Assembly: GCF_026626585.1 (NCBI RefSeq)
Contig: NZ_JAPNKD010000018.1
Span: 267,718-318,520 of the forward strand
Origin: Nannocystis sp. ILAH1
Lineage (GTDB): Bacteria; Myxococcota_A; Polyangia; Nannocystales; Nannocystaceae
DNA length: 50,803 nucleotides
Direction of reading: 5' to 3'
Positions within the stretch are counted from its first letter, which is position 1. Every line of letters starts with the position of its first letter. The position numbers and the translations under genes are program-made. The notes under the pieces were generated by a model. That model was not told where the DNA came from and searched no databases. It saw nothing but the letters and a program-made list of their open reading frames with translations. Below are positions 5,724 to 50,118 of the stretch, piece after piece.

Positions 5724-5792
5724 CGGGCATGCTCGGAAGGGCATGTCTGCCGGGGCATGTTTAATAGAGCATGCTCGAATGGGCATGTTGGA
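5724..5792 (+). repeat. array 1 of the 14-bp-period GGRCATGYY repeat family (5 units)
   Basis: CATG cores at 5728, 5742, 5756, 5770 and 5784, exactly 14 bp apart (gggcatgctcg / gggcatgtctg / gggcatgttta / gagcatgctcg / gggcatgttgg). It lies between the trpF stop and the next gene. Confidence 0.7.
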
Positions 5793-5849
5793 CGCCGCTG
5801 AAGCGCCCGGGAGCTGGGTCGTGGCCGCGCACGCGGGTGATGCCGCTGC

Positions 5850-7166
5850 GTGCGAGCGCTGCGCTCGGGCCTCGCGCGAGACGAGCGTCGGCGGTCCGGG
5901 TATGCTCGCCGGGTGACGAGCGTCTCGCGGCCGGTGCCGGCGGCGGCTCCGTGGGCGGAGTCGATGTTCTCGTTCGGGGTCACCGGCACCAACGGCAAGA
6001 CTTCGACGACGTGGATGCTGGCGGCGGCGGTGCGGGCGGCCGGGATGTCGGTGCTGCGGGTGTCGACGCTCGGGGTCGCGTTCGACGACGAGGCGTGGCC
6101 GCGCGGCAAGCGGTTCACCGACTTCGTGGCCACGCTCGCGCGGGCGCACGAGCGCGGGGCCAGGCACGCGGTGATCGAGACGACCAGCCACGCGCTGGCG
6201 CAGGGCTATGCGCGCAGCTGGCGGTTCGACCTCGGGGTGTTTACCAACTTGTCGGTCGATCACTTCGGCACGCACGGCAGCTGGGAGCACTACCTGGCGG
6301 CCAAGGCCCAGCTGTTCATGCACCTGGGACCCGGGCGCGTGGCGGTGCTCAACGCGGCCGACAAGCACGCGCTGTTCGTCGACCAGGCGATCCCCGCCGA
6401 CGTGGAGCGGCGGTGGTTCGCGGCGCCAGGTCGCGGGCCGCGGCTGCGCGCGGCGGACCTCGAGGCCGAGGCGATCGAGGTCGAGGCGACCGGGACGCGG
6501 GTGGTGCTGCGCCCGTCGCCGGCCGCGACTGCGCTCGGCGGGGCGCTCTTTACGAGGATGGTGGGCGAGGTGTTCGCCGAGAACGCGCTGACGGCCGCGC
6601 TCGCGGGGCTCGCGGCCGGGCTGCCGGGCGAGGCGGTGGCGCGCGGGATCGCCGAGTGCCCGATCGTGCCGGGGCGCTTCGAAGTGCTGGCCCACGGGCC
6701 TGGCCGGCCGACGATCGCGGTCGACTATGCGCACTCGCCCGACGCGCTGACGCATACGTGCGCGACGGCGCGGCGGCTGGCGGGGCCGCAGGGGCGAGTG
6801 TTGGTGGTGTTCGGCGCAGGTGGCAACTCGACGCCAGAGAAGCGCGCGCCGATGGGCGCGGCAGTCGGCGCGCTGGCCGACGTGGCGTCGGTGACGAGCG
6901 ACAACCCGCGCGACGAGGCGCCGGAGGCGATCGCGGCCGCAGTGGTGGAAGGGCTGCAGGGCGGTCGCGCGGGGTGGTCGATCGTTCTCGACCGCGGGCG
7001 GGCGATCGCCGAGGCGGTCGCGGCGGCCGGGGCTGGCGACGTGGTGGTGATCGCCGGCAAGGGCCACGAGGAGGGGCAGACGGCGCGCGGGCAGACGCGG
7101 CCGTTCTCCGACGTCGCTGAGGTGCGGCGGCTCGTCGAAGGTTGGCATGTGCCTGAAGGGACATGA
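5850..7166 (+). CDS. Mur ligase family protein, MurE-like central and C-terminal domains only (no UDP-MurNAc-binding N-terminal domain)
   Basis: ORF 5850..7166. It has the Mur ligase P-loop GVTGTNGKTSTT, a VDYAHSPDAL motif and a DNPRDE motif of the MurE/DAP-adding type. The start is uncertain: ATG 5850 or ATG 5964 (MFSFGVTGTNGKT). Either way there are at most about 40 residues before the P-loop, so the protein lacks Mur domain 1. Confidence 0.75.
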   Translation: MRALRSGLARDERRRSGYARRVTSVSRPVPAAAPWAESMFSFGVTGTNGKTSTTWMLAAAVRAAGMSVLRVSTLGVAFDDEAWPRGKRFTDFVATLARAHERGARHAVIETTSHALAQGYARSWRFDLGVFTNLSVDHFGTHGSWEHYLAAKAQLFMHLGPGRVAVLNAADKHALFVDQAIPADVERRWFAAPGRGPRLRAADLEAEAIEVEATGTRVVLRPSPAATALGGALFTRMVGEVFAENALTAALAGLAAGLPGEAVARGIAECPIVPGRFEVLAHGPGRPTIAVDYAHSPDALTHTCATARRLAGPQGRVLVVFGAGGNSTPEKRAPMGAAVGALADVASVTSDNPRDEAPEAIAAAVVEGLQGGRAGWSIVLDRGRAIAEAVAAAGAGDVVVIAGKGHEEGQTARGQTRPFSDVAEVRRLVEGWHVPEGT

Positions 7167-7240
7167 CCGAGAGGTCATGTGGATTTTCAGGTCGCCGGGG
7201 GCGGCCGCGCGGGTGACATGCCCTTTCGGGCATGTCCATA
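7143..7240 (+). repeat. array 2 of the GGRCATGYY repeat family (5 units)
   Basis: CATG cores at 7146, 7164, 7176, 7217 and 7231 (ggcatgtgcc, gggacatgacc, ggtcatgtgg, gtgacatgccc, gggcatgtcca). It lies in the convergent intergenic region 7167..7248. Confidence 0.6.
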
Positions 7241-7248
7241 CAATCATC

Positions 7249-7854
7249 TCAGCAGTCGGCCTCGTCGGCGCCGTCGGGGCAGTCGTCGGCCATGTCGCAC
7301 TTCCAGGTCGCCGGGATCTCGGTGCCGTTGGTGCAGAGGAAGGCCTCGAGGCCGCAGCCGGTGACCTCGTCGGAGTTGTCGAGGCAGTCGGGGACCTCGT
7401 CGCAGGCCCAGGTCGCGGGGATCTCCTTCTTGTCGGTGCAGGTGAAGGCCTCGAGGCCGCAGCCGCTGACCTCGTCGGAGCCGTCAGGACAGTCGGGGTT
7501 CTCGTCGCAGACCCACGCCGGGTTCTCGAGTGCGGTACCGTCGCTGCAGACGAAGCCCTCGCCGGTGGTGCCCGCGGTGGCCTCGGTGGTGCCCGCGGTG
7601 GCCTCGGTGGTGCTGGTCGGGGTTTCGGTGGTCGTCGGCGCGCTGGTGCCGGTGTCGGTGCCGTCGGTCGTCTCGCCCGCCGTGCCGGTGCTGGTCGTGT
7701 CGTCCGTGGTGCCGGCGGTGCTCTCGGTCGTGGTCGTCTCGGGGCCGATGTTGGTATCGGAGAGACCGCCGAGGTTGATCGTGCAGCCGGCTGTGGCGAC
7801 GCCCTGGCTCATGAGGGCGGCGACGGACAAAAATTTGGCGAGGTCGATGTTCAT
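7249..7854 (-). CDS. lipoprotein with three LDL-receptor class A (LDLa) cysteine-rich repeats
   Basis: Lower part of minus ORF 7249..7995. ATG at 7854 (MNIDLAKFLSVAALMSQGVATAGC) gives a lipoprotein-type signal. A Thr-rich linker follows, then three repeats of CxDGxxxxxxWxCDxxxDCxDxSDExxC (FVCSDG..WVCDENPDCPDGSDEVSGC, FTCTDK..WACDEVPDCLDNSDEVTGC, FLCTNG..WKCDMADDCPDGADEADC). Confidence 0.8.
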   Translation of the reverse strand: MNIDLAKFLSVAALMSQGVATAGCTINLGGLSDTNIGPETTTTESTAGTTDDTTSTGTAGETTDGTDTGTSAPTTTETPTSTTEATAGTTEATAGTTGEGFVCSDGTALENPAWVCDENPDCPDGSDEVSGCGLEAFTCTDKKEIPATWACDEVPDCLDNSDEVTGCGLEAFLCTNGTEIPATWKCDMADDCPDGADEADC

Positions 7855-7922
7855 CGTGCCGGCGAATGTGCCACGGGCCGGCGCGCAGGGGCGCGCGCGG
7901 CCCATGTGCCGGCGCGCGCGAT

Positions 7923-8423: not shown

Positions 8424-8613
8424 GGCGACGAGAGGTACCACGTCGGTGCACGGGGCGACGATTCCGCGCAGCGATCGATGACGCCGCGAACCGGTGCGAT
8501 TCGTGGTGGTTCGTCGTGCCCGTCGGCGGCTCGCCCGGGTCGCGGGCGACGGCCGTGCGCCGCGGTAATCGACGTTCCGCGGCGACGGCCCACCTCGACC
8601 GACACGAATGATT

Positions 8614-9699: not shown

Positions 9700-9713
9700 G
9701 GCGAATCACTCCT

Positions 9714-9906
9714 GTCGACGACGGCCGCCCCGGGCGGCGCGTCGCGGACTGTCACGATGGGTTGTGGACGATGCGGTCGACGACGGCCGCTCGTGCGGTG
9801 CGTCGCGGGCTGTCACGAGCGGTGAGTTGGGAACGGTGCAGTCGACGACGGCCGCTCACGCGGTGCGTCGCAGGTTGCCACGGGCGATAGGTTGTGGACT
9901 ATGTAG
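9714..9906. repeat. 3 x ~64-bp direct tandem repeat
   Basis: The copies are 9714-9775, 9776-9840 and 9841-9906. Each begins GTCGACGACGGCCGC and contains GCGTCGCGGRCTGTCACGA and GGTTGTGGAC. The array sits between the TetR stop (9907) and the AKR start (9699). Confidence 0.8.
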
Positions 9907-10509: not shown

Positions 10510-10529
10510 GGCTGGAAAGCTAAGCGTTC

Positions 10530-10545
10530 TTGACTGCGCTGTCAA
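10530..10545. promoter_or_regulatory. imperfect palindrome TTGACTGCGCTGTCAA, putative TetR operator overlapping a -35-like TTGAC
   Basis: It lies 21 bp upstream of the TetR start codon in the divergent region. It is palindromic around GCGC except for one position per half-site. Confidence 0.4.
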
Positions 10546-10689
10546 AATTAAATGTGAGGGATGCGTGAATGGCGCGGAGGTCTGGAGGCCGCCATACGCA
10601 GGCGTCCACGCGTGGACGGCGGGGTGGCTCGAGCGAGGGACGTTGACGCGTCGAATCTTCGGGGCCTGCGCTGCGAAGCACGGCGATGG

Positions 10690-10741
10690 CGGGCATGTCC
10701 TCTCGAACATGTTCTCATGGACATGCTCGATCGGGCATGTC
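10690..10741 (+). repeat. array 3 of the GGRCATGYY repeat family (4-5 units)
   Basis: CATG cores at 10694, 10708, 10722 and 10736 (14-bp phase), plus an off-phase core at 10716. Confidence 0.65.
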
Positions 10742-10776
10742 CCCGAGGACAAGCTCGAGCGGAGGGGCGGGGCCAG

Positions 10777-12123
10777 TCAGCGGCCGCTGGAGACCGGGCG
10801 GAACGAATCGACGAAGCGGCGCAGCTCGTCGGCGCGCTCGCGGGCCTGCGCTCGCGGGACTTCGCCGACGATCACGCAGGTGGCGTCGGCGACGGTGACG
10901 ACGCGGACGAGGCCGTGGGCATTGTCGGTGGTGAGGGTGCCCTCGAGGCCGGCGGTGCCCTCGACGTCGAGCGCACGCACGCCCTGGAGGCGCATGGTGT
11001 CGGCGATCCCGCGCAGCTCGTCGGCGGGCGTGCGGCCGGCGATCGGCCTGGCGCGCGCGCTGCAGGTGACGAGCCGCGAGAGGTCGCCGGGCTGCTTGAG
11101 CGCGAGCATGCGGGTGGTCATGGCCACGCCGTCGGCGGTGGTGAAGCTCTGGCGCTGCGCGTTGGGCCGCCGGGGGAAGACGGCAGAGAAGCCGACGTCG
11201 GGGAAGGCCCAGCGGACCTGCGAGCCCTCGCGCCCGACCTCGACCGGCTGGAGCGCCCCGGCCGCGACCGCGGCGAGCACGGCCTCCTGCTGCTCGAGGT
11301 GCTCGCGGAGCTCTTCGGCGAGCGCGTCGACGCGCGGGTGGGGCTCGCGATCGGGGGCGAAGGCGGTGCGCAGGGCGGCGAGCTCGGCGGGGGGGACGTC
11401 GACTGCGGCGAGGCGATCGGCGAGGTCGAGGATCCGGTCGCGCTCCTCGGGGAGGAACCACGGAGCGAGGAGGTCGCCGAGCGGGCCGAAGGTGGCGACC
11501 GCGACAGCGGGATCGATGGTGTCCGGGAGGGAGAGGGCGCTGGCGAGGACGTCGTGGACGCCGCGCGCGAGGTGAAAGCGGGCCTCGACGAAGGTGCGGC
11601 GAGAGGCGTCGTCACTTGTGAGCCGGTCGATGCGAAGGGCGGACTCTTTGAAAAAGGCCGCGGCGACGGCGAGGTACTCGTGTCCGTATTCGCCGCGCGT
11701 GAGGGCCCGGGCGGCGTAGAGCTGAAGGATGTCGGCGAGGGCCAGGTGCAATGCGGTGAGCTCGTCGGGGCCGGTGGTGCTCCGGACGGCGGCCTCGATG
11801 CCGTCGAGGGCGACGAGGCGCCGGAGCCATTCGCCGTCGGGTCCGTCGAGCCGCGGCAGCAGCTCGGGGCGCTCGCGCTCGAGGCGGACGAAGGCGTCGC
11901 GGACTTTTTGATAGTCCTGCGCGGTCCAGGGGGCGTCGGCGGGCGGGAGGTCGTAGGTCCGCCGCAGCTCGCTCGTCGGCTTGTCCTGCGGGGCGTCGAC
12001 GCTGGCAGGAGCCGTGGTCTCGGTGCTGCGTCGGCAGGCCGCGAGGAGGACGAGGAGGAGCACCAGGCTTCGACCCGTGCCTTGCGAGCGACGGCGCGGC
12101 GCGAACGGGTTCGAAGCGAACAT
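10777..12123 (-). CDS. lipoprotein, function unknown
   Basis: Lower part of track ORF 10777..13752, whose upper part overlaps typA in another frame and is rejected. ATG 12123 gives MFASNPFAPRRRSQGTGRSLVLLLVLLAAC (lipobox LLAAC). About 448 aa. Confidence 0.75.
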   Translation of the reverse strand: MFASNPFAPRRRSQGTGRSLVLLLVLLAACRRSTETTAPASVDAPQDKPTSELRRTYDLPPADAPWTAQDYQKVRDAFVRLERERPELLPRLDGPDGEWLRRLVALDGIEAAVRSTTGPDELTALHLALADILQLYAARALTRGEYGHEYLAVAAAFFKESALRIDRLTSDDASRRTFVEARFHLARGVHDVLASALSLPDTIDPAVAVATFGPLGDLLAPWFLPEERDRILDLADRLAAVDVPPAELAALRTAFAPDREPHPRVDALAEELREHLEQQEAVLAAVAAGALQPVEVGREGSQVRWAFPDVGFSAVFPRRPNAQRQSFTTADGVAMTTRMLALKQPGDLSRLVTCSARARPIAGRTPADELRGIADTMRLQGVRALDVEGTAGLEGTLTTDNAHGLVRVVTVADATCVIVGEVPRAQARERADELRRFVDSFRPVSSGR

Positions 12124-12442: not shown

Positions 12443-12481
12443 AAAGAAAAAGCGCGACCCCCTTTTTCAAAGGGGCCGCGC
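12443..12481 (-). terminator. rho-independent terminator downstream of typA
   Basis: On the minus strand this reads GCGCGGCCCC-tttgaaaaa-GGGGGTCGCGC followed by TTTTTCTTT. It lies 30 bp below the typA stop. Confidence 0.75.
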
Positions 12482-12509
12482 TTCGTCGCAGGCGAGGCTC
12501 GAGGTCGGC

Positions 12510-14375
<1,866 letters not shown>

Positions 14376-15700: not shown

Positions 15701-15712
15701 CGGGTGGGCGCT

Positions 15713-15781
15713 CGGGCATGTCGTGGAGGACATGTCCCGGCGGCAAGGTGCTTTGGGACATGTCGCGGAGGACATGTCCCC
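15713..15781 (+). repeat. array 4 of the GGRCATGYY repeat family (4 units, 14-bp phase)
   Basis: CATG cores at 15717, 15731, 15759 and 15773 (gggcatgtcg, gaggacatgtccc, gggacatgtcg, gaggacatgtccc). It lies in the convergent intergenic region 15701..15790. Confidence 0.7.
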
Positions 15782-19703: not shown

Positions 19704-19786
19704 AAGGGCATGTCGATCGGGGCATGTCCTCGGGGACATGGCGCGAGGGACATGGCACGAGGGGCATGGCGTGAGGGGCATGCTCG
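19704..19786 (+). repeat. array 5 of the GGRCATGYY repeat family (6 units, exact 14-bp phase)
   Basis: CATG cores at 19709, 19723, 19737, 19751, 19765 and 19779. The units are gaagggcatgtcga, tcggggcatgtcct, cggggacatggcgc, gagggacatggcac, gaggggcatggcgt and gaggggcatgctcg. Confidence 0.8.
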
Positions 19787-19898
19787 CAAGAGCGAGCGCG
19801 ATCTTGCGGCGACCGGCCGACGGCGGGCGTTGCGATCGGGGCGGAGGATCTCGCGGAGATGGGCCGACGGGGCGCGGTCGGAGATGCGGCCCTTTAAA

Positions 19899-19937
19899 AA
19901 GACATGTCGCCAGGGCATGGCCCGGGCGACATGTCTT
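19899..19937 (+). repeat. array 6 of the GGRCATGYY repeat family (3 units)
   Basis: CATG cores at 19903, 19916 and 19930 (agacatgtcgc, cagggcatggccc, gggcgacatgtct). Confidence 0.6.
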
Positions 19938-19959
19938 TCAGGGCAGCTCGTGCGAGCGC

Positions 19960-22756: not shown

Positions 22757-22824
22757 GGGACATGGCCTCAGGGGCATGTTAGTACGGGCATGCCCTCGGG
22801 GGCATGTCCATGAGGACATGTCCT
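22757..22824 (+). repeat. array 7 of the GGRCATGYY repeat family (5 units, exact 14-bp phase)
   Basis: CATG cores at 22761, 22775, 22789, 22803 and 22817 (gagggacatggcc, caggggcatgtta, tacgggcatgccc, gggggcatgtcca, gaggacatgtcct). It lies in the convergent region 22747..22825. Confidence 0.8.
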
Positions 22825-26756: not shown

Positions 26757-26810
26757 GTGACATGTCCGAATAGACCTGTGAATAGGGACATGTCCTGAAC
26801 GGCATGTCGA
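26757..26810 (+). repeat. array 8 of the GGRCATGYY repeat family (3 units plus 1 degenerate)
   Basis: CATG cores at 26761, 26789 and 26803, with a degenerate CCTG at 26775 that keeps the 14-bp phase. Confidence 0.6.
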
Positions 26811-36873: not shown

Positions 36874-36926
36874 GCGACATGTCGTCGGGGACATGTCTGC
36901 CAGGACATGGCCGAGAGGGCATGCTC
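36874..36926 (+). repeat. array 9 of the GGRCATGYY repeat family (4 units, 14-bp phase)
   Basis: CATG cores at 36878, 36892, 36906 and 36920 (ggcgacatgtcg, ggggacatgtct, caggacatggcc, gagggcatgctc). Confidence 0.7.
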
Positions 36927-39361: not shown

Positions 39362-39365
39362 CTGG

Positions 39366-41269: not shown

Positions 41270-41604
41270 GCTGATTTCCGTCTGGAGATCCCGGCCGTCC
41301 GCCACCTCTGAGATGGCGACAAGGGCCTTCTTGGCAGCGGCGGTGCCTGAGAGGACAGTCTGCGTGGTGGTGGTGCGGCCACCGCCCTGGCGGCGGGCGG
41401 ACCAGGCGGTGACGCCAAGTGATCTCGCCGGCTCTCTCAAAGCGGCGCTGAGGGACGGCGCCAGAGTAACGGCGGCAGGCCGATGGATATGCAACTACCA
41501 CCACAGAACGACGGTCCGTCTGCTCGCCGCGGAAGGTCCTTTTCTGCCTCGACAAAATCCCGTCTTCGACCGAGAATATCCGTGGCACGACCGACTCTTG
41601 CGTT

Positions 41605-41626
41605 AGATTGCACATTGGGGCAATCT
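41605..41626. promoter_or_regulatory. inverted repeat AGATTGC-N8-GCAATCT immediately upstream of the 41634 start codon
   Basis: Seen directly in the sequence. It lies in a locally AT-rich divergent region between the deiminase operon and the lipoprotein gene. Confidence 0.35.
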
Positions 41627-41633
41627 CGCGCCC

Positions 41634-42416
41634 ATGAAGAGGATGAGCATCCTGAGAAGATTGGGGATCTGCCTACTTTGTGCGGCGGCATGTGGTAAGG
41701 TCGACGAAACCGGCGACGCAACTGATGGAGGAGCAACGACCACGACCGCGGCCGCGGCCGCAGACACCGGCGAGGCATGCACACCGGGGTATGAAAGCTG
41801 TGAGTGCGTCGGTGGCGAGGTATGTCTCGCGGGCTTGTCGTGTGTCTCGAAGGTATGCGTCGACCTAGGCGAGTTGACGACCTCGGGGGGCGGCAGCGCC
41901 GGCGAGACGACCGGTAAGGATACCAGCGAGGAGCCACCGCCGACAGGCACCTGCTCTGTCACGGCCGAGTGCGCCGACACGGAGATCTGCGTCGACGGTT
42001 TCTGCGGCGACACTGACCTGTATTACTTCGACGTCCGCGTGACGAGGTTCGCGCCGGACGACTGTAGCGACGGATGGGGCGCCGGCGAGGTCTACTTCGC
42101 GTTCTACTCGGGGACGGAGAGCCAGCTACAGGGAGTGTCGACCTGGTCCTACTGTCCTGCGGACTGGAGTGATTTCGAGATGCCATTATACGACTCACTG
42201 ACGCCGTTCCAGCTTGACTTCTGGGAGGATGACGAGTTTGAGGACGACTATATGGCGACGCTCTGCTGGGACGCCGACGGCAACGCCAACTCGACCGACC
42301 CGTGTAGCGTCGTACCCAAGCACTGGTTGCGCGAAGGCACAGTGACTGGCTACATCGGCTCGTCCAACCAGTACGGTATCACGGTGACGTTCACGCAGCG
42401 TCCGTGGGAAGGTTGA
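41634..42416 (+). CDS. Cys-rich lipoprotein, function unknown
   Basis: ORF 41634..42416. Signal MKRMSILRRLGICLLCAAAC. Cys-rich modules (CTPGYESCECVGGEVCLAGLSCVSKVC, CSVTAECADTEICVDGFC). The C-terminal domain is acidic. Confidence 0.8.
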   Translation: MKRMSILRRLGICLLCAAACGKVDETGDATDGGATTTTAAAAADTGEACTPGYESCECVGGEVCLAGLSCVSKVCVDLGELTTSGGGSAGETTGKDTSEEPPPTGTCSVTAECADTEICVDGFCGDTDLYYFDVRVTRFAPDDCSDGWGAGEVYFAFYSGTESQLQGVSTWSYCPADWSDFEMPLYDSLTPFQLDFWEDDEFEDDYMATLCWDADGNANSTDPCSVVPKHWLREGTVTGYIGSSNQYGITVTFTQRPWEG

Positions 42417-42425
42417 GCACCCGAC

Positions 42426-43148
42426 ATGCGTCCGGCCGTCCTCGTCCTGCTCAGTATCTCGCTTGTCGCAGCTCCCTCCGCCGCGAAGCGCCCGCCCAAG
42501 GCCAAGCCGGTCGTGTCGCGCAAAGAAGCGGCCCCGCCAGCGCCGGCAATTCCGGCGAGCTCGTGGCGCGCGTTGAAGGATGCATGGATTGAAGTGTCGC
42601 TGCGTGATGGGGGAGTGGTACAGGGGCGACTTGCTGGTTCCGACGACAGGACGGCGACGATCGTCGAGAAGTCCGGCCATGTGCGTGCGCTCGCTATCGC
42701 CGACGCTCTCGAGCTCCGACAAGTTGCTGCTCCACCGGCACCACCCCCACCAGCACCTCTGACACTTGAGGCCAAGGACGCCGCGCGTGTGGCGGCGCTC
42801 GAGAAGCAGTACGGCGCCGGCTACACCAAGCCCAAGGGCAAGAAGATGCACACCGCTGGGTCCGTCATCCTCTCGCTCGGGCTCACACAGGCGGTGCTCG
42901 GCGTGGGCTTCGGGATCGTAACCGCCCTTTCCCAAGATGACGTATTCCGCGCGACCAGCATCGGCCTCTTGATTAGCGGCGGCATCACGATCGCGGTGGG
43001 CATACCCCTTATGGTCAAAGGCAGGGAGCGGCGCCTCGATTATCACGAATGGCTTCAGCAGCAGTCCTTAGGGGGGCAAGCCCGCGTAGTTCCCGGCATC
43101 ACCCCCCTACGTGGCGGTGGCGGTGTAAATCTGCGCATTTCCTTCTAA
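42426..43148 (+). CDS. secreted protein, function unknown (C-terminal 2-TM region)
   Basis: ORF 42426..43148. Signal MRPAVLVLLSISLVAAPSAA. Confidence 0.65.
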   Translation: MRPAVLVLLSISLVAAPSAAKRPPKAKPVVSRKEAAPPAPAIPASSWRALKDAWIEVSLRDGGVVQGRLAGSDDRTATIVEKSGHVRALAIADALELRQVAAPPAPPPPAPLTLEAKDAARVAALEKQYGAGYTKPKGKKMHTAGSVILSLGLTQAVLGVGFGIVTALSQDDVFRATSIGLLISGGITIAVGIPLMVKGRERRLDYHEWLQQQSLGGQARVVPGITPLRGGGGVNLRISF

Positions 43149-43199
43149 GTGGGCCGACTTTTCTTGAGAGCGTAGACCTCCGCTCTGCGTGCGCAGTCT

Positions 43200-43994
43200 C
43201 TACCTTAAGGCATGCATGTCGAGTTGATCGACGAGAATCTCCCGCAGGCGCCTGAGTTCCCGCTCGGAGTCGGCGTCGATACTGACTGAATCGTAGGAAA
43301 CGTCGCTCGGATAGAGCATGAGCGAGGCGTCACTGCGGTTGTAGTATGCGAGCTCTCCCGTCATGTAGGGCACTGGGGCGAACCCGAGTCTTTCCGCGAG
43401 CTCCCGGAACCGGGCCATGCGCGCTGCCATGGGCGGCACGCCGGCTTTACGAGCTGTCGACCGGCGCAGCTCAGCCCGGTGCGGCAGGACTTCGGTGCGG
43501 AGGAAGCGGAACGCCTCGCAGTAGAGGAACTGCATCAGGCTGTGGCAGTGGTGGTAGATGTACACATGATGCGATCCTGGGATAGGCTGGCCTTCATCGT
43601 CAAAGCCCCACTCATAACCGACCACCGGGAACGGGGGGCTCTGAGTGGTGTCGAGGAACATCTCGGACTGTCGGTCGAGCGTCCACAGGTATACAGCTCC
43701 TGGTGGGGCAGGGACCGTGGGGGCCCCGTAGAACGTGGCGATCACGTCGATGCCGAAATCATAGTCCTCCATGAATGGAGCGGCGGCTCCGTGCGGGGTG
43801 CGACCCAGGCGTCGAAGGAAGGCCCGAAGTTCGGGCGGAAACGCGAAGCCCGCGCGCATCTCTAGGCGGCGGATATCGTCCTCGGACGCGGGTGCGAAGC
43901 GAGCGCCAAACCCTTCGACATAAACAGCGAAGTACCGGACCCACGCGTCGAGCTCGGTAGCCCAGAAGTGTTCGTCGTCCCTATTTGGCGTCAT
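43200..43994 (-). CDS. hypothetical protein, in a lower-GC island
   Basis: ORF 43200..43994. The local GC is clearly lower than the flanks. There is no recognisable motif. Confidence 0.55.
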   Translation of the reverse strand: MTPNRDDEHFWATELDAWVRYFAVYVEGFGARFAPASEDDIRRLEMRAGFAFPPELRAFLRRLGRTPHGAAAPFMEDYDFGIDVIATFYGAPTVPAPPGAVYLWTLDRQSEMFLDTTQSPPFPVVGYEWGFDDEGQPIPGSHHVYIYHHCHSLMQFLYCEAFRFLRTEVLPHRAELRRSTARKAGVPPMAARMARFRELAERLGFAPVPYMTGELAYYNRSDASLMLYPSDVSYDSVSIDADSERELRRLREILVDQLDMHALR

Positions 43995-44234
43995 GTCTTT
44001 TCCTCAGGCGATGCTGGGTTCGTACACATCATGGAAGCCAGAATTCGCTTACAGGTGTTACAGGATGGCTTGTATCTCCTGTTCCGACTCTCGGGTATTT
44101 GCTCCAGTACCCTGAGGCTCACGCTCTTGCCCGCAGGAGCAGGAAGCATCTCCGCGTGGAATGCCGCGAAGAGCGTTTTACTCGGCACAGTTACCAGGGG
44201 GATGCTTGTCGTATTGAGCGCGCGGTCGTCGAAC

Positions 44235-44617
44235 TCATGGGGCTGGGGAAAGGAGCTGGGCCAGCCAGTGGATGATCAAGGTGTCGAGCGCGCCGGACTC
44301 GCGGCAGCTCGTCGGGTCGAGGTAGACGACGGGGTCGGTGGGACGGGGCGGGCGGGCAAGGCGCCGCTCGGCGAGGATGATGGCTTTCGGGTGGACGTCG
44401 TTGCCGAAGGCGTGGGGCCGGTCGGCGAGGTAGCCGTGCATCTTGAGATAGGCGGCGCGGAGGTAGCCGAGGTCGCTGGACAGTTTAGCGTCGAGCAGGA
44501 GTTCGAACTTGCGGCGGTCGTCCTCGAAGACGAGGCGGAGGTCGGGGCGCAGGTGCGCCCTCGCATCGTAGGCGTGAAGGAGGGCTAGTGTGTAGGCGCC
44601 GCGCTCGGCCGGCTGGT
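44235..44617 (-). pseudogene. C-terminal fragment of the McrC-like gene split by the IS21 insertion
   Basis: This is track ORF 44235..44633 minus its IS-derived start. It continues in frame from the N-terminal fragment 47335..48194 once the IS and one TSD copy are removed (...LFYNQP|AERGAYTLALLHAYD...). It contains a PD-(D/E)xK-like motif, RPDLRLVF...ELLLDAK. Confidence 0.6.
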
Positions 44618-44736
44618 TGCGTATTCCGGCCATCGTGATCGCGTGGATCGGTCATCGTGATCACTCCGGAGGTCGGAGCGGAGCGACGCGGTTGCGGGCT
44701 CGGCGCGGACGGAGCGAAGCGACGCTGATGGGGTGT

Positions 44737-45441
44737 TCAGGTCTGGGAGGCGACCTCCTTGCGGCGTGATGGGCCTTTTAGCATGAGGCGGTGGCACTGG
44801 GAGAGCATGCGATCGCAAATCGCATCAGCGGTTGTGGGGTCGCCGATCTGGTCGTGCCAGAGCTCGGGCGAGCGCTGGCTGGTCAGGATGGTGGAGCGTT
44901 CACCGAATCGATCCTCCATCAGTTCGGACATGTCTCTTCGCTCGGCCGGTCCGAGCGGGGTCATGGCCCAGTCGTCGAGGATCAGGACGTCGACGCGGGC
45001 GAGCTTGGCGAGCAATCTTGCATAGGTCCCGTCGGCGCGGGCGAGCGCGAGCTCGTCGAAGAGCCGCGAGGTGCGGCGGTACATGGCGCGGTAGCGGCGG
45101 CGGAGGGCGTGCTGGGCGAGGGCGCAGGCGAGGAAGGACTTCCCGGTGCCCGTCGGGCCGGTGATGGCGATGTTCTGGTGCTAGGCGACCCAGTTGCAGG
45201 TCGCGAGCTGGCGGATCAGCGGCTTGTCGAGCTCGCGGCGGTCGTCGTAGTCGAGGTCCTCGAGGCAGGCGCTGCCGAGCTTGAGGCGCGCCTCCTTGAG
45301 GTTGCGCTTGAGGCGGGCGTTCTGCCGGCTCATCCACTCGGAGTCGACGAGGAGGCCGAGGCGCTCGTCGAAGCCGAGGCCACCGTAGTCGGGCCGCGAC
45401 TGCTGCTCGAGCCAGGCTGCGGCGAGACCGTTCAGCCGCAT
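44737..45441 (-). pseudogene. istB: IS21 helper ATPase IstB with an in-frame amber stop (TAG at 45181-45183) just before the Walker A motif
   Basis: Track ORFs 45181..45441 and 44737..45084 are in the same frame. The sequence between them reads HQNIAITGPTGTGKSFLACA (Walker A) straight after the TAG. The C-terminus is VDVLILDDWAMTPL...ERSTILTSQRSPELW. Confidence 0.8.
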
Positions 45442-45492
45442 TCTTTGAGCTTGTCCATGGTCTGCTGATTCATCATCGATGTGTCTTTTCGG

Positions 45493-47040
45493 TCAGTTGT
45501 AGTAGCGAGGGCCGCGGATGTTCTCGTGGGCCTCGGGCTTGTCGGCCGGTATGTCGGCGGGGATATCGGGCAGCGGGGCGCGGTCGAGGCCGTTCTTGAG
45601 GATCGATTCGACGTGGCGGTACGAGCGAGCGCGCACGGCCACGGCACGGGCGCAGGCGGCCTCGAGGCGCGCGTCGCCGTAGGTCTTGCCCAGGCGCAGG
45701 ATGCCGAGGCAGGCGCGGTAGCCGTGCTCGGGGTGCTTGCGGTCCTTCATGATGGCCTGGGCGAGCTCGGCGGTCTTCGGGCCGACCTGCTTCGCCTGGG
45801 CGAGGATCCGGCTCGGCGAGCGATCGGCGTGCCGCTGGTGGGCCTTCGGCATGTGCTCGGGCTTGGTGGTATGGCGACCCGCGGCGAAGCTGCGCGCGTG
45901 CGAGGTGATGCGCTTGCCGCCGTGCAGGAGCCCGACGGTCGTCGCGGTGAAGCGCGCCTCGACGGCCTCGCCGACGAGGGTGTACGGCACCGAGTAGTAG
46001 TGGCGATCGATCTCGACGTGGTAGTCGATGTTGACGCGGCACGTCTTCCACTCGCAGTACTCAAATCGCTCGACGGGGAGCGGTCGCAGTTCCGATCGCT
46101 CGATGCGCTCGAAGAGGGCGCGACGGCTGATGTTGCCGTACTTCTTCATCGGCCGGGTGTTGAGGTCCTCGAGCAGCTCGGCGACCCGCGCATTGAGCTC
46201 CGCGAGCGAGTGGAAGACCTCGTCGCGCAGGCGCGCGACGATCCACCGCTGGGCGATCAGCATGGCGTTCTCGACCTTGGCCTTGTCGCGCGGCTTGCCG
46301 GGCCTGGCCGGCATGACGGTGGTGCCGTAGTGCTCCGCGAGCGCGGCGTAGGTTCGCTGGATCTTCGGGTCGTACCAGCACGACTTCGTCACCGCGGCCT
46401 TGAGCTGGTCGGGCACCAGCGCCGCCGGCACGCCGCCGAAGTACTCGAGCATGCGCGCGTTGCTGGCGATGAAGTCGTGGCCCCGCTGCGTCAGGCTCGC
46501 CTCGGCGTAGGTGAGGTTCGAGGCCCCGAGCACGCCGACGAAGAGCTCGACCGCGATGCACTCGCCGGTCTTCGGATCGACGATGTGCAGCCTGTTACCC
46601 GAGTAGTCGACGAAGGCCTTGTCACCGGCCACGTGGTCGATCCGCATCGTCCAGCCGCGCTGCTTCAGCCAGGTTCGGTACAGCTCGCAGAATTGCGTGT
46701 AGCGATACCCGTCCCGGTTCTTCTCGAGGTACTCGACGTGCAGCAGCGCGAGCGTGACGCCCTTCCGCCGCCGCTGCGCGTGGATATGCGTGAAATCAGG
46801 CAGCGGCCTCGCCCGCGACGCCGGCTCGCCGTCGTAGACGACCCGCTCCAGTGCCTCGTCGCTGAGGGCCTGCACGGCCTCCCAGGTGAGGCCGGCCTCA
46901 CTCGCCTTGCCCACGACCTTGCCGACGACGCCGGCGCTGACGTCGAGGCTCGCAGCCACGTCCCGGTGGCTTCGCTGCAGCGCCCACTTCTGGCGCAGGA
47001 TCTCGCGGATGTTCTTCATGGTCAGTCGCTGCGTCGCCAT
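45493..47040 (-). CDS. istA: IS21-family transposase IstA
   Basis: Frame of ORF 45493..47178. ATG 47040 (MATQRLTMKNIREILRQKWALQRSHRDVAASLDVSAGVVGK), with a GGGAGG RBS 5 nt upstream. It has an HTH domain plus an integrase core (DYSGNRLHIVD...). Confidence 0.9.
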   Translation of the reverse strand: MATQRLTMKNIREILRQKWALQRSHRDVAASLDVSAGVVGKVVGKASEAGLTWEAVQALSDEALERVVYDGEPASRARPLPDFTHIHAQRRRKGVTLALLHVEYLEKNRDGYRYTQFCELYRTWLKQRGWTMRIDHVAGDKAFVDYSGNRLHIVDPKTGECIAVELFVGVLGASNLTYAEASLTQRGHDFIASNARMLEYFGGVPAALVPDQLKAAVTKSCWYDPKIQRTYAALAEHYGTTVMPARPGKPRDKAKVENAMLIAQRWIVARLRDEVFHSLAELNARVAELLEDLNTRPMKKYGNISRRALFERIERSELRPLPVERFEYCEWKTCRVNIDYHVEIDRHYYSVPYTLVGEAVEARFTATTVGLLHGGKRITSHARSFAAGRHTTKPEHMPKAHQRHADRSPSRILAQAKQVGPKTAELAQAIMKDRKHPEHGYRACLGILRLGKTYGDARLEAACARAVAVRARSYRHVESILKNGLDRAPLPDIPADIPADKPEAHENIRGPRYYN

Positions 47041-47172
47041 TTCGCCTCCCACGCGAAATGGCCGGTGATTCAGCGTCGACCTCGCCCCCTCGCGCATTCG
47101 GCTGCGCGTAACACGCGGAGGCGGCTCCGTTCCTTGGAGTCTCGGCCGCCGGCCGGCGCACTCGCCGCCGGT

Positions 47173-47315
47173 GATCACGAGGACCGATCTGGGCGATCAC
47201 GATGCCGATCGGCGCGATCACGATGCCGATCGGCGCGATCACGACGCCGACCGGCGTGATCACGATGCCGATCTACGCGATCACGAGGGACCGATCTGGG
47301 CGATCACGATGGGCC
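47173..47315. repeat. array of about 6 x 21-bp GATC-rich repeats (GATCACGATGCCGATCGGCGC) in the IS21 left terminal region
   Basis: Copies at roughly 47173, 47195, 47216, 47237, 47258, 47279 and 47304. The first and last copies are the variant GATCACGAGGRACCGATCTGGGC. Each unit carries two GATC sites. Inverted copies of the unit lie at 44632-44665 at the other end. Confidence 0.8.
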
Positions 47316-48194
47316 GTTTTCCGCAGGCTGGTTGTAGAAGAGGCGCAGAACGGCCTGGCCTTCGCGCCAGGTGGCGATGGCCCGACGGTTGGCAGCGATC
47401 AGGGTGTTCTTGCGGGTGGCCGCGGGCCAGGCGCGGTCGATGGATTCAATCAGGGTGAGCAGGATGTAGAGCTCGAAGCGCGTCTCGGGCTGATACGGGA
47501 CGAGGGAGTAGCGGGCGAGGGCGTCGCGCAGGTGCTCGAGTTTGGGGCGAGGGAGGAGGTTGGCGTGGTCGTGGGCGATGATGGCGGCGTGGCGGATCGC
47601 GGCATCGCGGCTCTGCTGGCACGCGCGGTAGGTGTCGGCAGTCGGGCGTGACTCGGGGAGGTCGCGCAGCGCGGCGTGTCGGAGGCAGGTCTCGGCGGCG
47701 TTGTGGATCCGCGAGAGGCGTCCGATCCAGAGATCGTCGCGTGCATATTCGCTCGGGCCGAGCGTCGCGGCGGCGAGGCGGATCCGCTCGACGAGCCAGC
47801 GAACGAGCAGGAGCTCCTGCGTACTGAAGGACCGGCGGAGGCTGGTGGTGATGGCACGAGCGGGATCGCGGGTCTGTTGCCGGAGGACCAGGGTACGGCC
47901 CCAGTCGATCCGGCCGCGGACATGGCCGCGGAGCTCCTCGCGGACGCGTTCACTGCGCGGGTGGATCCGGCGCAGGTAGGCCGGGAGGTCGTCGCAGACG
48001 AGGCGCTCGACGCCGCTGCCGGGGTCGAGCAGGAAGGCGAGCGCGGCGAGCTGGTGCAGGCTGTCGGCGTCGCCGGCGAGGCGGGCGAGCGCGCGGGCGA
48101 CGGCGGTAGCCGGGCGCGGGTGGCCCTCGGCGCAGCGCAGGAGGTACGCCGGGAACTGTCCTTCGAGCCAGGTCTCCCAGGAGCGCTCGGTCAT
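47304..48194 (-). pseudogene. N-terminal fragment of the McrC-like gene, partner of the McrB-like GTPase; truncated by the IS21 insertion
   Basis: ORF 47304..48194. Its last three codons plus the stop (GPS*) come from the IS tip. Its ATG overlaps the McrB-like stop (ATGA). Confidence 0.6.
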
Positions 48195-49876
48195 GGGCGG
48201 CGGAGGTGCGGGAAGTAGCTGCGCAGGCTGGTGTTCAGCTCGTGGCGGACGTCATCCTCGGTGAAGAGGCGCTCGATCCGGGAGATGGCCTCCTGGGCGT
48301 GGTTGTCCTCGGCGCCTTCGAGCTGGGGGAAGACGAGCAGCTCGACGCCCTCGCCGAGGGCCCGCTGGTGGCTGGCGCCGGGGCGCTGGGCGGCGTACTG
48401 GAGGAGGTCGAGGAGCAGCGCTGGGCCGAGATCGACGGCGCTGCCGAGGCCCTGCGCACGCGAAAGGACGCGCGCGGCAAGCTCCCAGCGGTCGGGGGCG
48501 ATCCCGTGGGATTCACCTGCCCGCTGGGCCAGGCGACGCAGGGCGTCGTCGTCGAGGCCAGGAACATGCACCGCCGCGAAGCGGCGCATGAAGGCATAGG
48601 ACAGGCGAAACAGGCTGGCCTTGTCGCGCACGTTCATGGTGGCGATCAGGCGGATGTGCGGGCCGAAGTTGTAGGGCTCGGCGCCGGGGCCGATCATAAC
48701 CTCGCGACCGTCGGCGTCGGTGTAGGCGGTGACGACGGTGCCGCCGCTGAGGACGGTGAACAGCTCGCCGAAACATTTATCGATGTCGGCACGGTTGACC
48801 TCGTCGAGGACGATCCACCGACGCTCGCGCAGGGCGCGGGTGACGATACCCTCGCGGAAGGCGAGGCGGGTGTCAGCCTGCTGGGCCCAGCCGCCGATCG
48901 TGTCATAGGTCGACCAGTCGGCCGAGGCGGTGGCGAGCTTGGCCTCGCCGCCGCAGGCGCCGTCGGCGTGGGCCTGGGAGGCGAGCGCGGCCGCAATCGT
49001 GCTTTTGCCGGTGCCCGGCGGGCCGAGCAGGAGGAGGTGCTTACCGGCGTTGAGGGCGGCGCAGCAGCGCTCGAGGACGCCGGGCGGGCACTCGAAAGCG
49101 CCCAGGCGGGCGAGGACGTTCTCGGGAGTGAGGGCGAGTGGGGTGAAGGTGGACGCGAGGAGATCCGCAAGGATAGCCACACTCGTGAGTTCGTTGGGCT
49201 CGTCGGTGACTGAGTTGTCCTCGTCGTCTGCGGGGTTGCTCAGCCCCGATCCCTCGATCTTGAAGAGGGACTCGCCGCGGATCTTCGTGCGCGCGAAGGA
49301 GTAGAAGTGGGCCTTGATCAGCGCGAGGGTGACGAAGCGGCGCAGCACCTCGCCTGGGACGGGGCTCCAAGATCGGCTTTCGAGGTCGTATGTGCCGCAC
49401 ACGATCTCAGACTTGTTGCCCAGGCCGCTCTCGCCCGCCACCTCGCGCGCCTGCTCGCCGTAGCGGCTGTTGCGCTCAGGATCGTCGTCGAGGACGCGCT
49501 CATAAAAGCTGTTGCGGACGAGCAGCCGCACCTGGCGCTGTTTGGCGCGGATCGCGTCGCGGACACCGAACTCGAGGTTGGACCAGAGGACCAGGCCGGA
49601 GCTCTTCGAGACCCATACCCCAAGGCCCGTGGCGTGGCCGCTATCCTCGGGTCGGCCCGAGCGGTTGATGTTATCTTTACGGATTCGGACCGGGAGCGCG
49701 ATTTCGCCGCCAGACCAGCGGACGAGAAGCTGGCGGCGATCGCCGTCGCGCGTGTCTTCGGCGATCTCAATGTCGCGTCGGGCGACCTTCCACGTGCGCG
49801 GCAACTCGGCGTCGAGGAGCGTCTGGAAAGCCTCGCGCGTGGTTTCCTCGGATTGTTCGAGCGATGGGAGTGCCAT
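48191..49876 (-). CDS. McrB-like AAA+ (AAA_5) GTPase subunit of a McrBC-type restriction system, with a ~280-aa N-terminal domain of unknown specificity
   Basis: ORF 48191..49876. LLLLGPPGTGKSTIA, then WIVLDEVNRADIDKCFGELFTVL (the McrB-type DEINRAN..K.FGEL motif), then RLIATMNVRDKASLFRLSYAFMRRF. A GAAGGA RBS is present. Confidence 0.8.
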   Translation of the reverse strand: MALPSLEQSEETTREAFQTLLDAELPRTWKVARRDIEIAEDTRDGDRRQLLVRWSGGEIALPVRIRKDNINRSGRPEDSGHATGLGVWVSKSSGLVLWSNLEFGVRDAIRAKQRQVRLLVRNSFYERVLDDDPERNSRYGEQAREVAGESGLGNKSEIVCGTYDLESRSWSPVPGEVLRRFVTLALIKAHFYSFARTKIRGESLFKIEGSGLSNPADDEDNSVTDEPNELTSVAILADLLASTFTPLALTPENVLARLGAFECPPGVLERCCAALNAGKHLLLLGPPGTGKSTIAAALASQAHADGACGGEAKLATASADWSTYDTIGGWAQQADTRLAFREGIVTRALRERRWIVLDEVNRADIDKCFGELFTVLSGGTVVTAYTDADGREVMIGPGAEPYNFGPHIRLIATMNVRDKASLFRLSYAFMRRFAAVHVPGLDDDALRRLAQRAGESHGIAPDRWELAARVLSRAQGLGSAVDLGPALLLDLLQYAAQRPGASHQRALGEGVELLVFPQLEGAEDNHAQEAISRIERLFTEDDVRHELNTSLRSYFPHLRRP

Positions 49877-49887
49877 GATCCTTCAGT

Positions 49888-50118
49888 TCACTGCTGTGGC
49901 GGGGCAGGCGGCGTCGGAGCCGAGTCTGGCATCAAGTGGGAGAGGTTGTGCTCGGCGAGCCGCTCGCGGATTTCCTTGCGGAAGCTCTCTAGCAGGTTGC
50001 TGAAAAAGTCCCGGCCGGCCCAAATCGGCATGTCCATTCGGACAGAACATGGCCGAATTCGGCCGCGCAGGGCACTTCTCGATGATGAGTGGGGCGGCTT
50101 CGCGGGCTCCGTCGCCAT
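49888..50118 (-). CDS. hypothetical small protein (76 aa)
   Basis: ORF 49888..50118 is tightly packed between neighbours (gaps of 12 and 4 nt). It contains two GGRCATG units (array 10), which argues against it being a real gene. Confidence 0.25.
   Translation of the reverse strand: MATEPAKPPHSSSRSALRGRIRPCSVRMDMPIWAGRDFFSNLLESFRKEIRERLAEHNLSHLMPDSAPTPPAPPQQ
50025..50055 (+). repeat. array 10 of the GGRCATGYY repeat family (2 units, weaker)
   Basis: cggcatgtcca and gaacatggcc, with CATG cores at 50029 and 50048. Confidence 0.4.

Follow-up and report, generated by a model that had tools for sequence, protein, structure and literature searches.

Intergenic arrays of a short palindrome in a strict 14-bp register at gene 3' ends in Nannocystis

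Intergenic DNA in a 50,803-nt stretch of the soil bacterium Nannocystis sp. ILAH1 (contig NZ_JAPNKD010000018.1, positions 267,718 to 318,520; referred to as the window) contains short tandem arrays with a CATG core. The question is what these arrays are and what might read them. A preliminary description had listed ten arrays of a 14-bp unit, all in a single orientation. The unit was found to be a 10-bp palindrome, GGRCATGYCC, joined to a free 4-nt spacer, which gives the period of 14 bp. Many units were full palindromes (GGACATGTCC).

The arrays are real, and nine of the ten listed ones hold up (Table 1). In the window, 28 CATG pairs were found at lag 14 compared with 0.84 expected (Poisson p ~1e-32), and GGRCATG occurred 53 times compared with 13.8 +/- 3.7 in shuffles. 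Beyond the listed arrays, the window held only three CATG pairs at 14 or 28 bp, which is the chance level, and the motif was not enriched outside arrays or in genes. The phasing and most of the listed coordinates were thereby confirmed, except that array 1 starts 10 bp earlier and listed array 10 is out of phase. The latter is probably not a member, and array 8 is a weak one. Exact phasing without gaps had been claimed for arrays 1, 5, 7 and 9; their cores were in phase, with one extra core in array 7. The skipped or off-phase cores described for arrays 3, 4 and 8 were all recovered.

Table 1. Arrays of the 14-bp unit in the window, with the position of their cores and of neighbouring genes
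Array	Position	Strand	Cores	Site
1	5714..5787		six cores 5714/5728/5742/5756/5770/5784, exact 14 bp	between trpF, whose stop (TGA 5716-5718) is overlapped by the first core, and a Mur-ligase-like gene
2a	7146..7179		three cores 7146/7162/7176, spacings 16, 14; first sub-array of array 2	end of the Mur-ligase-like gene; second core plus A makes its stop (TGA 7164-7166)
2b	7217..7234		two-unit dyad GACATGCCC TTTC GGGCATGTC, cores 7217/7231; second sub-array of array 2	adjoins the stop of a minus-strand LDL-receptor-repeat gene (7249-7854)
3	10694..10739		in-phase cores 10694/10708/10722/10736, extra core 10716	38 bp past the stop of minus-strand gene 10777-12063; upstream of a TetR gene
4	15717..15776		cores 15717/15731/15759/15773, spacings 14, 28, 14; two dyads around one 'dead' unit	convergent gap beside rlmE
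5	19709..19782		six units exactly in phase, cores 19709 to 19779	starts 16 bp past the stop of plus-strand gene 18968-19693
6	19898..19941	-	cores 19903, 19916, 19930, spacings 13, 14	
7	22761..22820		five in-phase cores 22761 to 22817, extra core 22809	fills the 79-bp convergent gap between genes 22279-22746 (+) and 22826-23443 (-)
8	26761..26806		cores 26761/26789/26803, spacings 28, 14	176 bp upstream of a hybrid histidine-kinase gene; only array of the window in a divergent gap
9	36878..36923		four cores 36878 to 36920, exactly in phase	starts 24 bp past the stop of the second TldD/PmbA-like gene (35523-36854)
Listed 10	50029..50051		cores 50029 and 50048, spacing 19; minus-strand G-run	

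The register was just as sharp in a larger sample. Across 340 kb of Nannocystis sequence, cores were exactly 14 bp apart in 202 pairs, whereas spacings of 13 and 15 bp were found in 4 and 8 pairs. The 28-bp spacing was represented by 112 pairs (9 at 27 bp and 3 at 29 bp), and further peaks appeared at 42 and 56 bp. Off-by-one spacings made up less than 6% of the near-14 spacings. The 202 inter-core segments were nearly all unique and showed no tetraloop preference (GNRA 13 versus 12.9 expected). The register is far sharper than structure alone requires.

The window is part of a Nannocystis chromosome, and the same arrays were present in two NCBI assemblies and in three SRA-derived contigs of close relatives. 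Hence, an assembly artefact, which the preliminary description had allowed for, is ruled out. CRISPR was rejected as well: the arrays have a 14-bp period, a 4-nt spacer and 2-6 units at many loci, compared with repeats of 23-55 bp, and Pfam scans found no cas domains in the window. No Rfam match at or above the gathering score was obtained in the whole window, and no description of such arrays was found in the searchable literature.

The strict single orientation did not stand up. Besides the full palindromes, the two halves occur independently of each other: both half-sites were present in 62 units, compared with 63.8 expected. Intact half-sites in the window lay on the G side in 26 cases and on the C side in 10, and the counts at the flanking positions (50 G versus 36 C) were indistinguishable from the strong background GC skew of the strand (p = 0.83). 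When arrays were tallied by polarity, 18 were mixed, 26 were G-only and 11 were C-only, and both orientations were seen at other Nannocystis loci. At 31 further loci, the asymmetry of the arrays correlated with the local GC skew and took its sign (Spearman 0.54, p = 0.0017). Along the chromosomes of N. pusilla and N. punicea, the sign of the asymmetry switched together with the skew.

The preliminary description had taken the fixed orientation as a sign of an element linked to replication or chromosome polarity. Such an element would have its G-run and CATG read directionally, as KOPS or Chi are, and would be kept on the leading strand. The excess of G half-sites and the agreement with the skew are what it would produce. 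It is nevertheless highly improbable, given a palindromic consensus with independent halves, an imbalance equal to the background and the frequent mixed or opposite polarities. A correlation with replication polarity does exist, but the simplest reading of it is a passive consequence of the skew, not a function of the KOPS kind. As with KOPS and Chi, the G-rich strand, which is presumably the leading one, carries mostly the G-rich version. Unlike them, the Nannocystis motif is palindromic, its bias does not exceed that of the background, and it is limited to intergenic arrays, with no enrichment outside them or in genes; a polar motif of the KOPS/Chi kind was therefore rejected.

A G-quadruplex or other non-B structure built from phased G-runs on one strand is hardly credible. 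G-runs do recur every 14 nt on the G-rich strand of arrays 1, 5 and 9, but GGG directly before CATG was found in only ~39% of units, whereas most units had GGA. The loops would be 10-11 nt long, whereas the motif is defined by a minimum of four G-runs, each of three or more G, and by loops not exceeding 7 nt. Moreover, a quadruplex has no need of a conserved CATG.

The placement at gene 3' ends and in convergent gaps, also part of the preliminary description, was borne out. Arrays began 0-40 nt past stop codons. In the window, they occupied 5 of 8 convergent gaps, 3 of 24 tandem gaps and 1 of 7 divergent gaps. Across the loci scored, convergent gaps accounted for ~30 arrays, tandem gaps for 19 and divergent gaps for 2 (chi-square p = 4e-8), and the arrays in tandem gaps nearly always abutted the upstream stop codon. 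Relative to the direction of transcription the element is symmetric, and the G-run showed no significant trend to follow the sense strand in one-directional gaps. In 14 of 56 cases (25%), the stop codon itself fell in the register of the array, a hint that the arrays are coupled not to DNA but to translation or the transcript.

Comparison between genomes separated the conserved from the free positions. The same gaps held arrays in N. bainbridge and N. radixulma. Among Nannocystis species, CATG, GGR and the exact register were kept, the spacers were saturated with substitutions, and the number of units drifted. When orthologous arrays were pooled, CATG was invariant at 36 of 36 positions, GGR at 25 of 27 and YCC at 16 of 27, compared with 14 of 42 for spacers and dead units. 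Array 4 had an identical length in five genomes, with invariant CATG (16/16), GGR (11/12) and YCC (10/12). Its central dead unit kept the exact length too, while only 7 of its 18 positions were invariant and 11 of 18 bases varied. For array 7 in three strains, the values were 20/20 for CATG, 14/15 for GGR, 6/15 for YCC and 3/16 for the spacers. The dyad of array 2b and array 6 were both kept in the strains L114 and L115, and the DNA between 2a and 2b was non-homologous. Saturated spacers next to an invariant CATG, with so few spacings off by one base, imply purifying selection on core and register.

More distant relatives, whose RlmE was 77% and 69% identical, had single two-unit dyads only. 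The matches found outside Nannocystis were perfect microsatellites or 7-bp repeats. The arrays are long-lived, restricted to the genus and vertically persistent, with turnover of their units, and they are not copies of a master element.

This turnover was visible in several arrays. Array 5 had six units in the window, four in L114 and five in L115, although these strains are ~95% identical. The order of units in array 7 appeared to be shuffled between strains, and three identical adjacent units in L090 point to recent slippage. All of this could reflect a selfish or neutral repeat, seeded at many sites by an enzyme or a templated-mutation process, lengthened and shortened by replication slippage and tolerated at 3' ends with no host function. 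Convergent gaps are a classic safe harbour for repeats, and the low-GC island at 37-50 kb, a recent acquisition, was almost free of arrays. We consider this origin improbable, as drifting repeats would not be expected to combine saturated spacers with so few off-by-one spacings and an invariant CATG in orthologues, nor to stay put in corresponding gaps from one species to another. Neither a mobilising gene nor a terminal structure was seen.

At the RNA level, adjacent and nested units form strong hairpins because the core is palindromic with a 4-nt gap; at least two units are required. Very stable hairpins were predicted for all arrays in either transcript direction (z = -2.1 to -9.3 compared with shuffles). 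On the minus strand of array 6, a 15+4 bp hairpin (dG -32.9 kcal/mol, z = -9.3) is followed by UUUUU, and this array looks like an intrinsic terminator for gene 19960-20661. The dismissal of terminator and REP-like roles in the preliminary description was therefore too early.

A REP/BIME-like RNA element, the chief competing reading, is possible, if on the unlikely side. Units transcribed from either strand would pair with neighbouring or nested units through 10-bp arms and 4-nt loops. The resulting 3' UTR hairpins would terminate transcription bidirectionally, block 3' exonucleases or do both, and the shared sequence would reflect descent via a dedicated mobilising enzyme, as RAYT is for REPs. 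Such an element would account for the position just past stop codons, the enrichment in convergent gaps, the stop codons in register, the folding on both strands and the terminator-like array 6. A 10-nt arm and a tetraloop add up to the period of 14, and the orthologue of array 1 in N. radixulma (four units, L120 19749-19794) fills the entire gap between trpF and the Mur-ligase gene, as intra-operon REPs do. Native arrays were also ~1.2 kcal/mol more stable than half-site-permuted controls (-25.35 versus -24.12 +/- 0.48 kcal/mol, z ~-2.6).

Several results run against this RNA element. Structure alone explains neither the invariant CATG nor GGR. Pair covariation between units was not significant (p = 0.08 to 0.5), and C-A mismatches were as frequent as chance predicts. 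The loop length is held far tighter than hairpins need, without any preferred tetraloop. Strongly one-sided arrays pair poorly from unit to unit, array 5 with its strong predominance of G half-sites being an example. Array 6 apart, the arrays had no U-tract after the hairpin, and a terminator consensus scan of 5-25 kb gave no match at arrays, whereas a canonical terminator is present elsewhere in the window (12449-12484, minus strand). Finally, the spacers were not common to the copies, unlike in recently replicated REPINs.

Among known systems, the arrays share much with REP/BIME elements. Both are high-copy, lineage-specific extragenic palindromes that concentrate downstream of stop codons and in convergent gaps, are often clustered at fixed spacing and are able to fold into RNA stem-loops. 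Gyrase and IHF are among the proteins known to bind REP/BIME elements, which also stabilise the mRNA upstream of them. A REP unit, however, is an imperfect palindrome of 20-40 nt that folds alone, whereas here a 10-bp palindrome recurs with a strict 14-bp period, and only 7-10 nt are conserved between hypervariable spacers rather than the whole unit. The alternating-orientation architecture was absent from the Nannocystis arrays, and Pfam scans found no RAYT (Y1 transposase) gene in the window. The earlier view that they are not CRISPR, classical REP/BIME units or operators was supported, and we rate the arrays as a new variety of extragenic palindromic repeats.

Intrinsic and bidirectional terminators resemble them in lying after stops and in convergent gaps, in their stable GC-rich hairpins on both strands and in the U-run of array 6. 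Terminators share structure and not sequence, however, and neither a 14-bp register nor an invariant CATG is necessary for termination. Cyanobacterial STRR heptamer arrays and microsatellites, the other class of matches to the search pattern, are likewise short tandem repeats scattered in intergenic DNA. They are non-palindromic and repeat an entire 7- or 14-bp unit perfectly or almost so, whereas Nannocystis conserves the core only.

The strongest resemblance, a conserved core with a fixed period, was to the 8-bp metboxes of MetJ and the 7-bp heptads of the omega protein, which are also short boxes in an exact head-to-tail register. In tandem operators of such ribbon-helix-helix proteins, 2 to 10 boxes are each bound by one dimer, and contacts between dimers create a helical protein array. 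Those operators repress from few promoters, whereas the arrays here abut stops, avoid gaps with promoters, have a period of 14 bp and may number hundreds to thousands at 3' ends, with a reader that is only putative.

As our tentative first choice, the arrays would be a cooperative binding track for a putative dimeric protein, marking the ends of transcription units. A phased site for a multimeric DNA-binding protein had already been suggested, and it best fits the exact register, the conserved core and the free spacers. Independent half-sites and the lack of covariation are what a palindrome read by protein predicts. A sequence-specific dimer peculiar to Nannocystis would read each GGR-CATG-YCC site on double-stranded DNA, with two independently decaying half-sites flanking the invariant CATG. 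Each 14-bp step would rotate the next site by ~120 degrees, three sites making four helical turns, and bound dimers could touch their neighbours, so that 2 to 6 of them would build a short helical filament. Just past stop codons, and mostly between convergent genes, such a filament would mark where a transcription unit ends. It could stop read-through and polymerases meeting head-on, in the manner of a roadblock or insulator, or it could offer topoisomerase a landing site where positive supercoils build up. Arrays would avoid promoter-containing gaps because binding there would be harmful.

Some observations sit uneasily with such a track. With a 14-bp period, one site and the next do not lie on the same side of the helix, an arrangement seldom seen with proteins that bind cooperatively. 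We also know of no established bacterial precedent for a sequence-specific DNA-binding protein at 3' ends across a genome. The inevitable strong hairpins and the stability edge of native arrays leave room for a role at the RNA level, and array 6 resembles an ordinary intrinsic terminator.

The more specific proposal, a dedicated putative protein that polymerises on phased GGRCATGYCC sites and marks 3' boundaries of transcription units genome-wide, is doubtful. If true, it would be a DNA-encoded, protein-mediated system for termination, insulation or supercoil management with no described bacterial counterpart.

The window is 71% G+C, with 206 CATG tetramers. Two CATG at a distance of exactly 14 bp were found 28 times, compared to 0.84 pairs expected for a single lag (Poisson p ~1e-32), and the multiples 28, 42 and 56 bp had 18, 14 and 7 pairs, respectively. 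Nearly all other lags up to 100 bp had one to three pairs. GGRCATG occurred 53 times, compared to 13.8 +/- 3.7 times in dinucleotide-preserving shuffles. Tandem Repeats Finder independently reported period-14 or period-28 rows at five of the intergenic arrays (arrays 3, 4, 5, 7 and 9, numbered in window order from 5724 to 50055). Thus, the exact 14-bp phasing claimed in the preliminary description was borne out, the motif frequency was above background, and the array coordinates given there were correct to within ~10 bp. The phasing is gap-free in arrays 1, 5, 7 and 9, as had been described, and arrays 3, 4 and 8 indeed keep the phase over a skipped unit or contain an extra off-phase core. Regarding the list of ten arrays, arrays 1–9 hold, though array 2 consists of two sub-arrays, while array 10, with its 19-bp spacing, is an unconvincing member. 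The spacings of array 6 are 13 and 14 bp. Beyond the listed arrays, the window has only three chance CATG pairs at 14 or 28 bp.

The gene content of the window in Pfam scans was that of an ordinary chromosome, with the trp operon, a Mur-ligase-like gene, typA/bipA, rlmE, tatD and a hybrid histidine kinase. The RlmE protein was identical in two NCBI assemblies (CP185339.1, 12.2 Mb, and JBMPIV010000001.1) and three SRA-derived contigs, the DNA of which was ~95% identical to the window. All of these assemblies contained the same arrays, which are thus no artefact; absence from an independent assembly was not seen. The nearest named RlmE proteins were those of Nannocystis bainbridge (92%) and N. 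radixulma (91%). When one genome of each prokaryotic species was scanned for three GGRCATG copies spaced by 14 bp, two kinds of matches emerged. The first comprised Nannocystis exedens, pusilla, punicea, bainbridge and radixulma and a MAG. The second, in cyanobacteria and scattered other taxa, is unrelated, these matches being either repeats of 7 bp or perfect microsatellites of 14 bp. Within the compared loci L006–L113, many filamentous cyanobacteria had heptamer arrays of 7-bp period containing GGRCATG, which are STRR-like off-target matches. A search of viral contigs returned three matches, all unrelated. Four array-rich loci (L063, L046, L033 and L089) were checked for a mobilising enzyme, and their gene calls looked like ordinary gene-sized ORFs.

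Orthologous arrays in relatives were located from BLAST anchors. In the ~95%-identical strains, the arrays were in the same gaps, with scrambled spacers and a drifting unit number (six, four and five units for array 5 in three strains); the arrays could therefore serve as typing markers. The invariant positions of array 7 in three strains were 20 of 20 for CATG, 14 of 15 for GGR, 6 of 15 for YCC and 3 of 16 for the spacer. For array 4 in five genomes including N. bainbridge, they were 16/16, 11/12, 10/12 and 4/8, respectively. The central dead unit of array 4, a skipped in-phase position without CATG between two dyads, had only 7 of 18 invariant positions and no indel in the five genomes. Most orthologous gaps in N. 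bainbridge and N. radixulma retained arrays; N. radixulma had none after rlmE. Syntenic regions of relatives with an RlmE identity of 77% and 69% contained one two-unit dyad each and nothing more. Conserved gaps, scrambled spacers and a drifting unit number mean that the family is old in the genus, vertically inherited and rapidly remodelled. It expanded specifically in Nannocystis and, judging from these alignments, its core and register appear to be under purifying selection. A selfish or neutral repeat driven by slippage is unlikely.

In the relative with 69% RlmE identity (L122), the single perfect dyad GCCATGTCCCGAGGGACATGTCC at 7365-7382 comes directly after the stop of a CarH-like (MerR/B12-binding) gene and may represent an ancestral low-copy form of the element.

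In an alignment of 183 neighbouring core pairs, taken from the window and from 31 Nannocystis loci, the cores were separated by 10 nt reading Y-C-C-N4-G-G-R. The unit is thus a palindrome, GGR-CATG-YCC, with a spacer of 4 nt. Both half-sites were present in 62 of 235 units (63.8 expected), the G half (GGR) only in 85, the C half (YCC) only in 40 and neither in 48, meaning that the two half-sites occur independently. We give hardly any credence to a G-quadruplex. The spacers were assessed in 202 inter-core segments (the window, the 31 loci, L119, and L120 from N. radixulma). Almost every segment was unique, and no tetraloop selection was found among them (GNRA 13 vs 12.9 expected). The register was strict: 340 kb of Nannocystis DNA contained 202 pairs at 14 bp vs 4 at 13 bp and 8 at 15 bp, and 112 at 28 bp vs 9 at 27 bp and 3 at 29 bp, with further maxima at 42 and at 56 bp. 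In a variant that recurs in many Nannocystis loci, an additional CATG lies at exactly 6 bp from an in-phase core, as CATGGRCATG or CATGYCCATG. The 340 kb contained 22 such pairs vs 1–5 at neighbouring distances, and the window has examples at 10716 and 22809.

Several simple explanations of the motif were rejected. A CsrA-type GGA sponge does not fit because the base 5' of CATG is nearly as often G as A and the motif is symmetric, and a decoy of Shine-Dalgarno plus ATG does not fit because the spacing is just 1 nt. Restriction avoidance of CATG was dismissed as well, as CATG outside the arrays was near the composition value (~150 observed vs ~133 expected). The consensus RNA-polymerase pause element appears to match the array motif only partially.

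The strict single orientation proposed for the arrays was not upheld. The unit is palindromic, the two core-flanking positions in the window comprised 50 G and 36 C, a ratio equal to background (p = 0.83), and both array polarities were present in the 31 other Nannocystis loci. The plus-strand GC skew of the window is unusually strong (+0.11 to +0.15, strongest at 5000-37000). Genes on the plus strand (+0.086), genes on the minus strand (+0.117) and intergenic DNA (+0.127) all shared its sign, and thus the skew goes with the chromosome strand rather than with transcription. Minus-strand genes reached +0.33 at their third codon positions. Across the 31 loci, array asymmetry tracked the local skew outside the arrays (Spearman 0.54, p = 0.0017). 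On the N. pusilla and N. punicea chromosomes, both switched sign together (Fisher p = 0.05 for N. pusilla). In the loci of other Nannocystis chromosomes, the sign of the skew depended on chromosome position. The window is co-oriented with CP185339.1, at ~5.2 of 12.2 Mb, which would fit its G-rich plus strand being the leading strand if the origin is near position 0. Hence, of the suggested link to replication or chromosome polarity, the association with skew stood, but there was no bias beyond background. The orientation is a real statistical bias linked to the replichore, and it is fully explained by a palindrome decaying under skewed composition; a true polarity element is very improbable. 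The G-run did not significantly follow the sense strand either (37 vs 28 in one-directional gaps). More generally, strong GC skew alone can give a palindromic repeat an apparent strand polarity.

Gap types were assigned with a codon-usage gene map in the window and with gene calls in the other loci. About 30 arrays were in convergent, 19 in co-directional and 2 in divergent gaps (expected 25%, 50% and 25%; p = 4e-8). In the window, arrays were found in 5/8 convergent, 3/24 tandem and 1/7 divergent gaps, in agreement with the location at gene 3' ends and in convergent gaps described before. In co-directional gaps, the array nearly always abuts the upstream stop codon (0 to 40 nt). The stop codon was in the array register in 14/56 cases in Nannocystis loci, which is above chance (p = 3e-5), and was made up of TG, from a real or degenerate CATG, and a following A. 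The arrays seem to run right up to the stop codon or to supply it.

A reading as REP-like RNA hairpins that would terminate transcription or stabilise mRNA, possible but rather doubtful, is supported by this position, the stop-codon register, the fold stability and array 6. All arrays folded far more stably than shuffled sequence, whichever strand was read (z = -2.1 to -9.3), which is inherent in the design, since palindromic units can all pair with one another. On the minus strand, array 6 forms a 15+4 bp hairpin followed by UUUUU, which is kept in relatives and, as a predicted fold, resembles an intrinsic terminator for the gene at 19960-20661. Selection for pairing as such is weak: inter-unit pairs showed no significant covariation (p = 0.08 to 0.5), C-A mismatches were at chance rate, and native arrays were only 1.2 kcal/mol more stable than rebuilds with permuted half-sites (z ~ -2.6). 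The organism also uses ordinary terminators, since a textbook one with a 16-bp stem and a U-tract follows typA/bipA (12449-12484, minus strand). The Rfam scan of the whole window returned zero families, and no tRNA genes were found in it.

An invariant core, independent half-sites, free spacers and a base-pair register kept across dead units are the signature of a sequence-specific reader of fixed geometry. We tentatively favour a putative dimeric protein with a 3'-end function, the dimers of which would bind cooperatively along the row of sites on double-stranded DNA. With a 14-bp step of ~120 degrees rotation, four helical turns cover three sites. That the arrays lie at 3' ends could result from function or from selection against binding in promoter gaps. 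As candidate functions, the protein might serve as a roadblock or insulator where genes converge, or provide a landing site for topoisomerase. That the arrays are a DNA-written, protein-mediated 'end-of-gene' mark is a more speculative reading, to which we give a low probability.

The arrays are like REP/BIME in location and copy behaviour, but the REP definition of a unit does not apply to them, and the unit is not conserved as a whole. The architecture is like that of MetJ or omega-type tandem operators, while location and number differ. CRISPR, STRR-type repeats, microsatellites and a KOPS-like motif were rejected. No description was found in the literature on Nannocystis repeats, 14-bp myxobacterial repeats, REP in Myxococcus and relatives, or the core sequence; the exact 10-mer of the core matched the p53 half-site alone. 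If read by a protein, the arrays would provide bacteria of very large, GC-rich genomes with an 'end-of-gene' signal that is simple and programmable, and one could then test how convergent transcription is kept insulated, and supercoiling managed, in genomes of this kind. RNA hairpins would still mean a new architecture of extragenic palindromic repeats. In practice, the arrays pollute ORF calling and break alignments and assemblies.

The low-GC island of the window (37360-50802, GC 0.65-0.70) had essentially no arrays and is likely acquired or defence DNA.

Stop codons in array register and genes of the low-GC island (window coordinates)
Feature	Position	Location or remark
trpF stop codon	5716-5718	in register with array 1
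Mur-ligase stop codon	7164-7166	in register with array 2
Sir2-family protein	38063-38833	low-GC island
Protein-arginine deiminase	40025-41494	low-GC island
SUKH/SMI1 protein	43200-43994	low-GC island
IS21 istB	44737-45180	low-GC island
IS21 istA	45493-47178	low-GC island
Partner ORF of McrB-like ATPase	47304-48194	low-GC island; McrBC-like pair
McrB-like AAA_5 ATPase	48191-49876	low-GC island; McrBC-like pair

Other repeats were also found in the window. A 21-bp tandem repeat with 6.5 copies (GATCACGATGCCGATCGGCGC) at 47173-47311 adjoins the 5' end of istA and may correspond to the multiple terminal repeats that IS21 ends typically have. A 65-bp tandem repeat with 2.7 copies (9714-9886) separates the aldo-keto reductase gene from the TetR gene; overlapping BLAST alignments to close relatives suggest copy-number differences there. 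A small protein on the minus strand (7249-7854) has three LDL-receptor class A domains, which are unusual in bacteria, and is coded by 105-bp repeats (repeat at 7260-7515).
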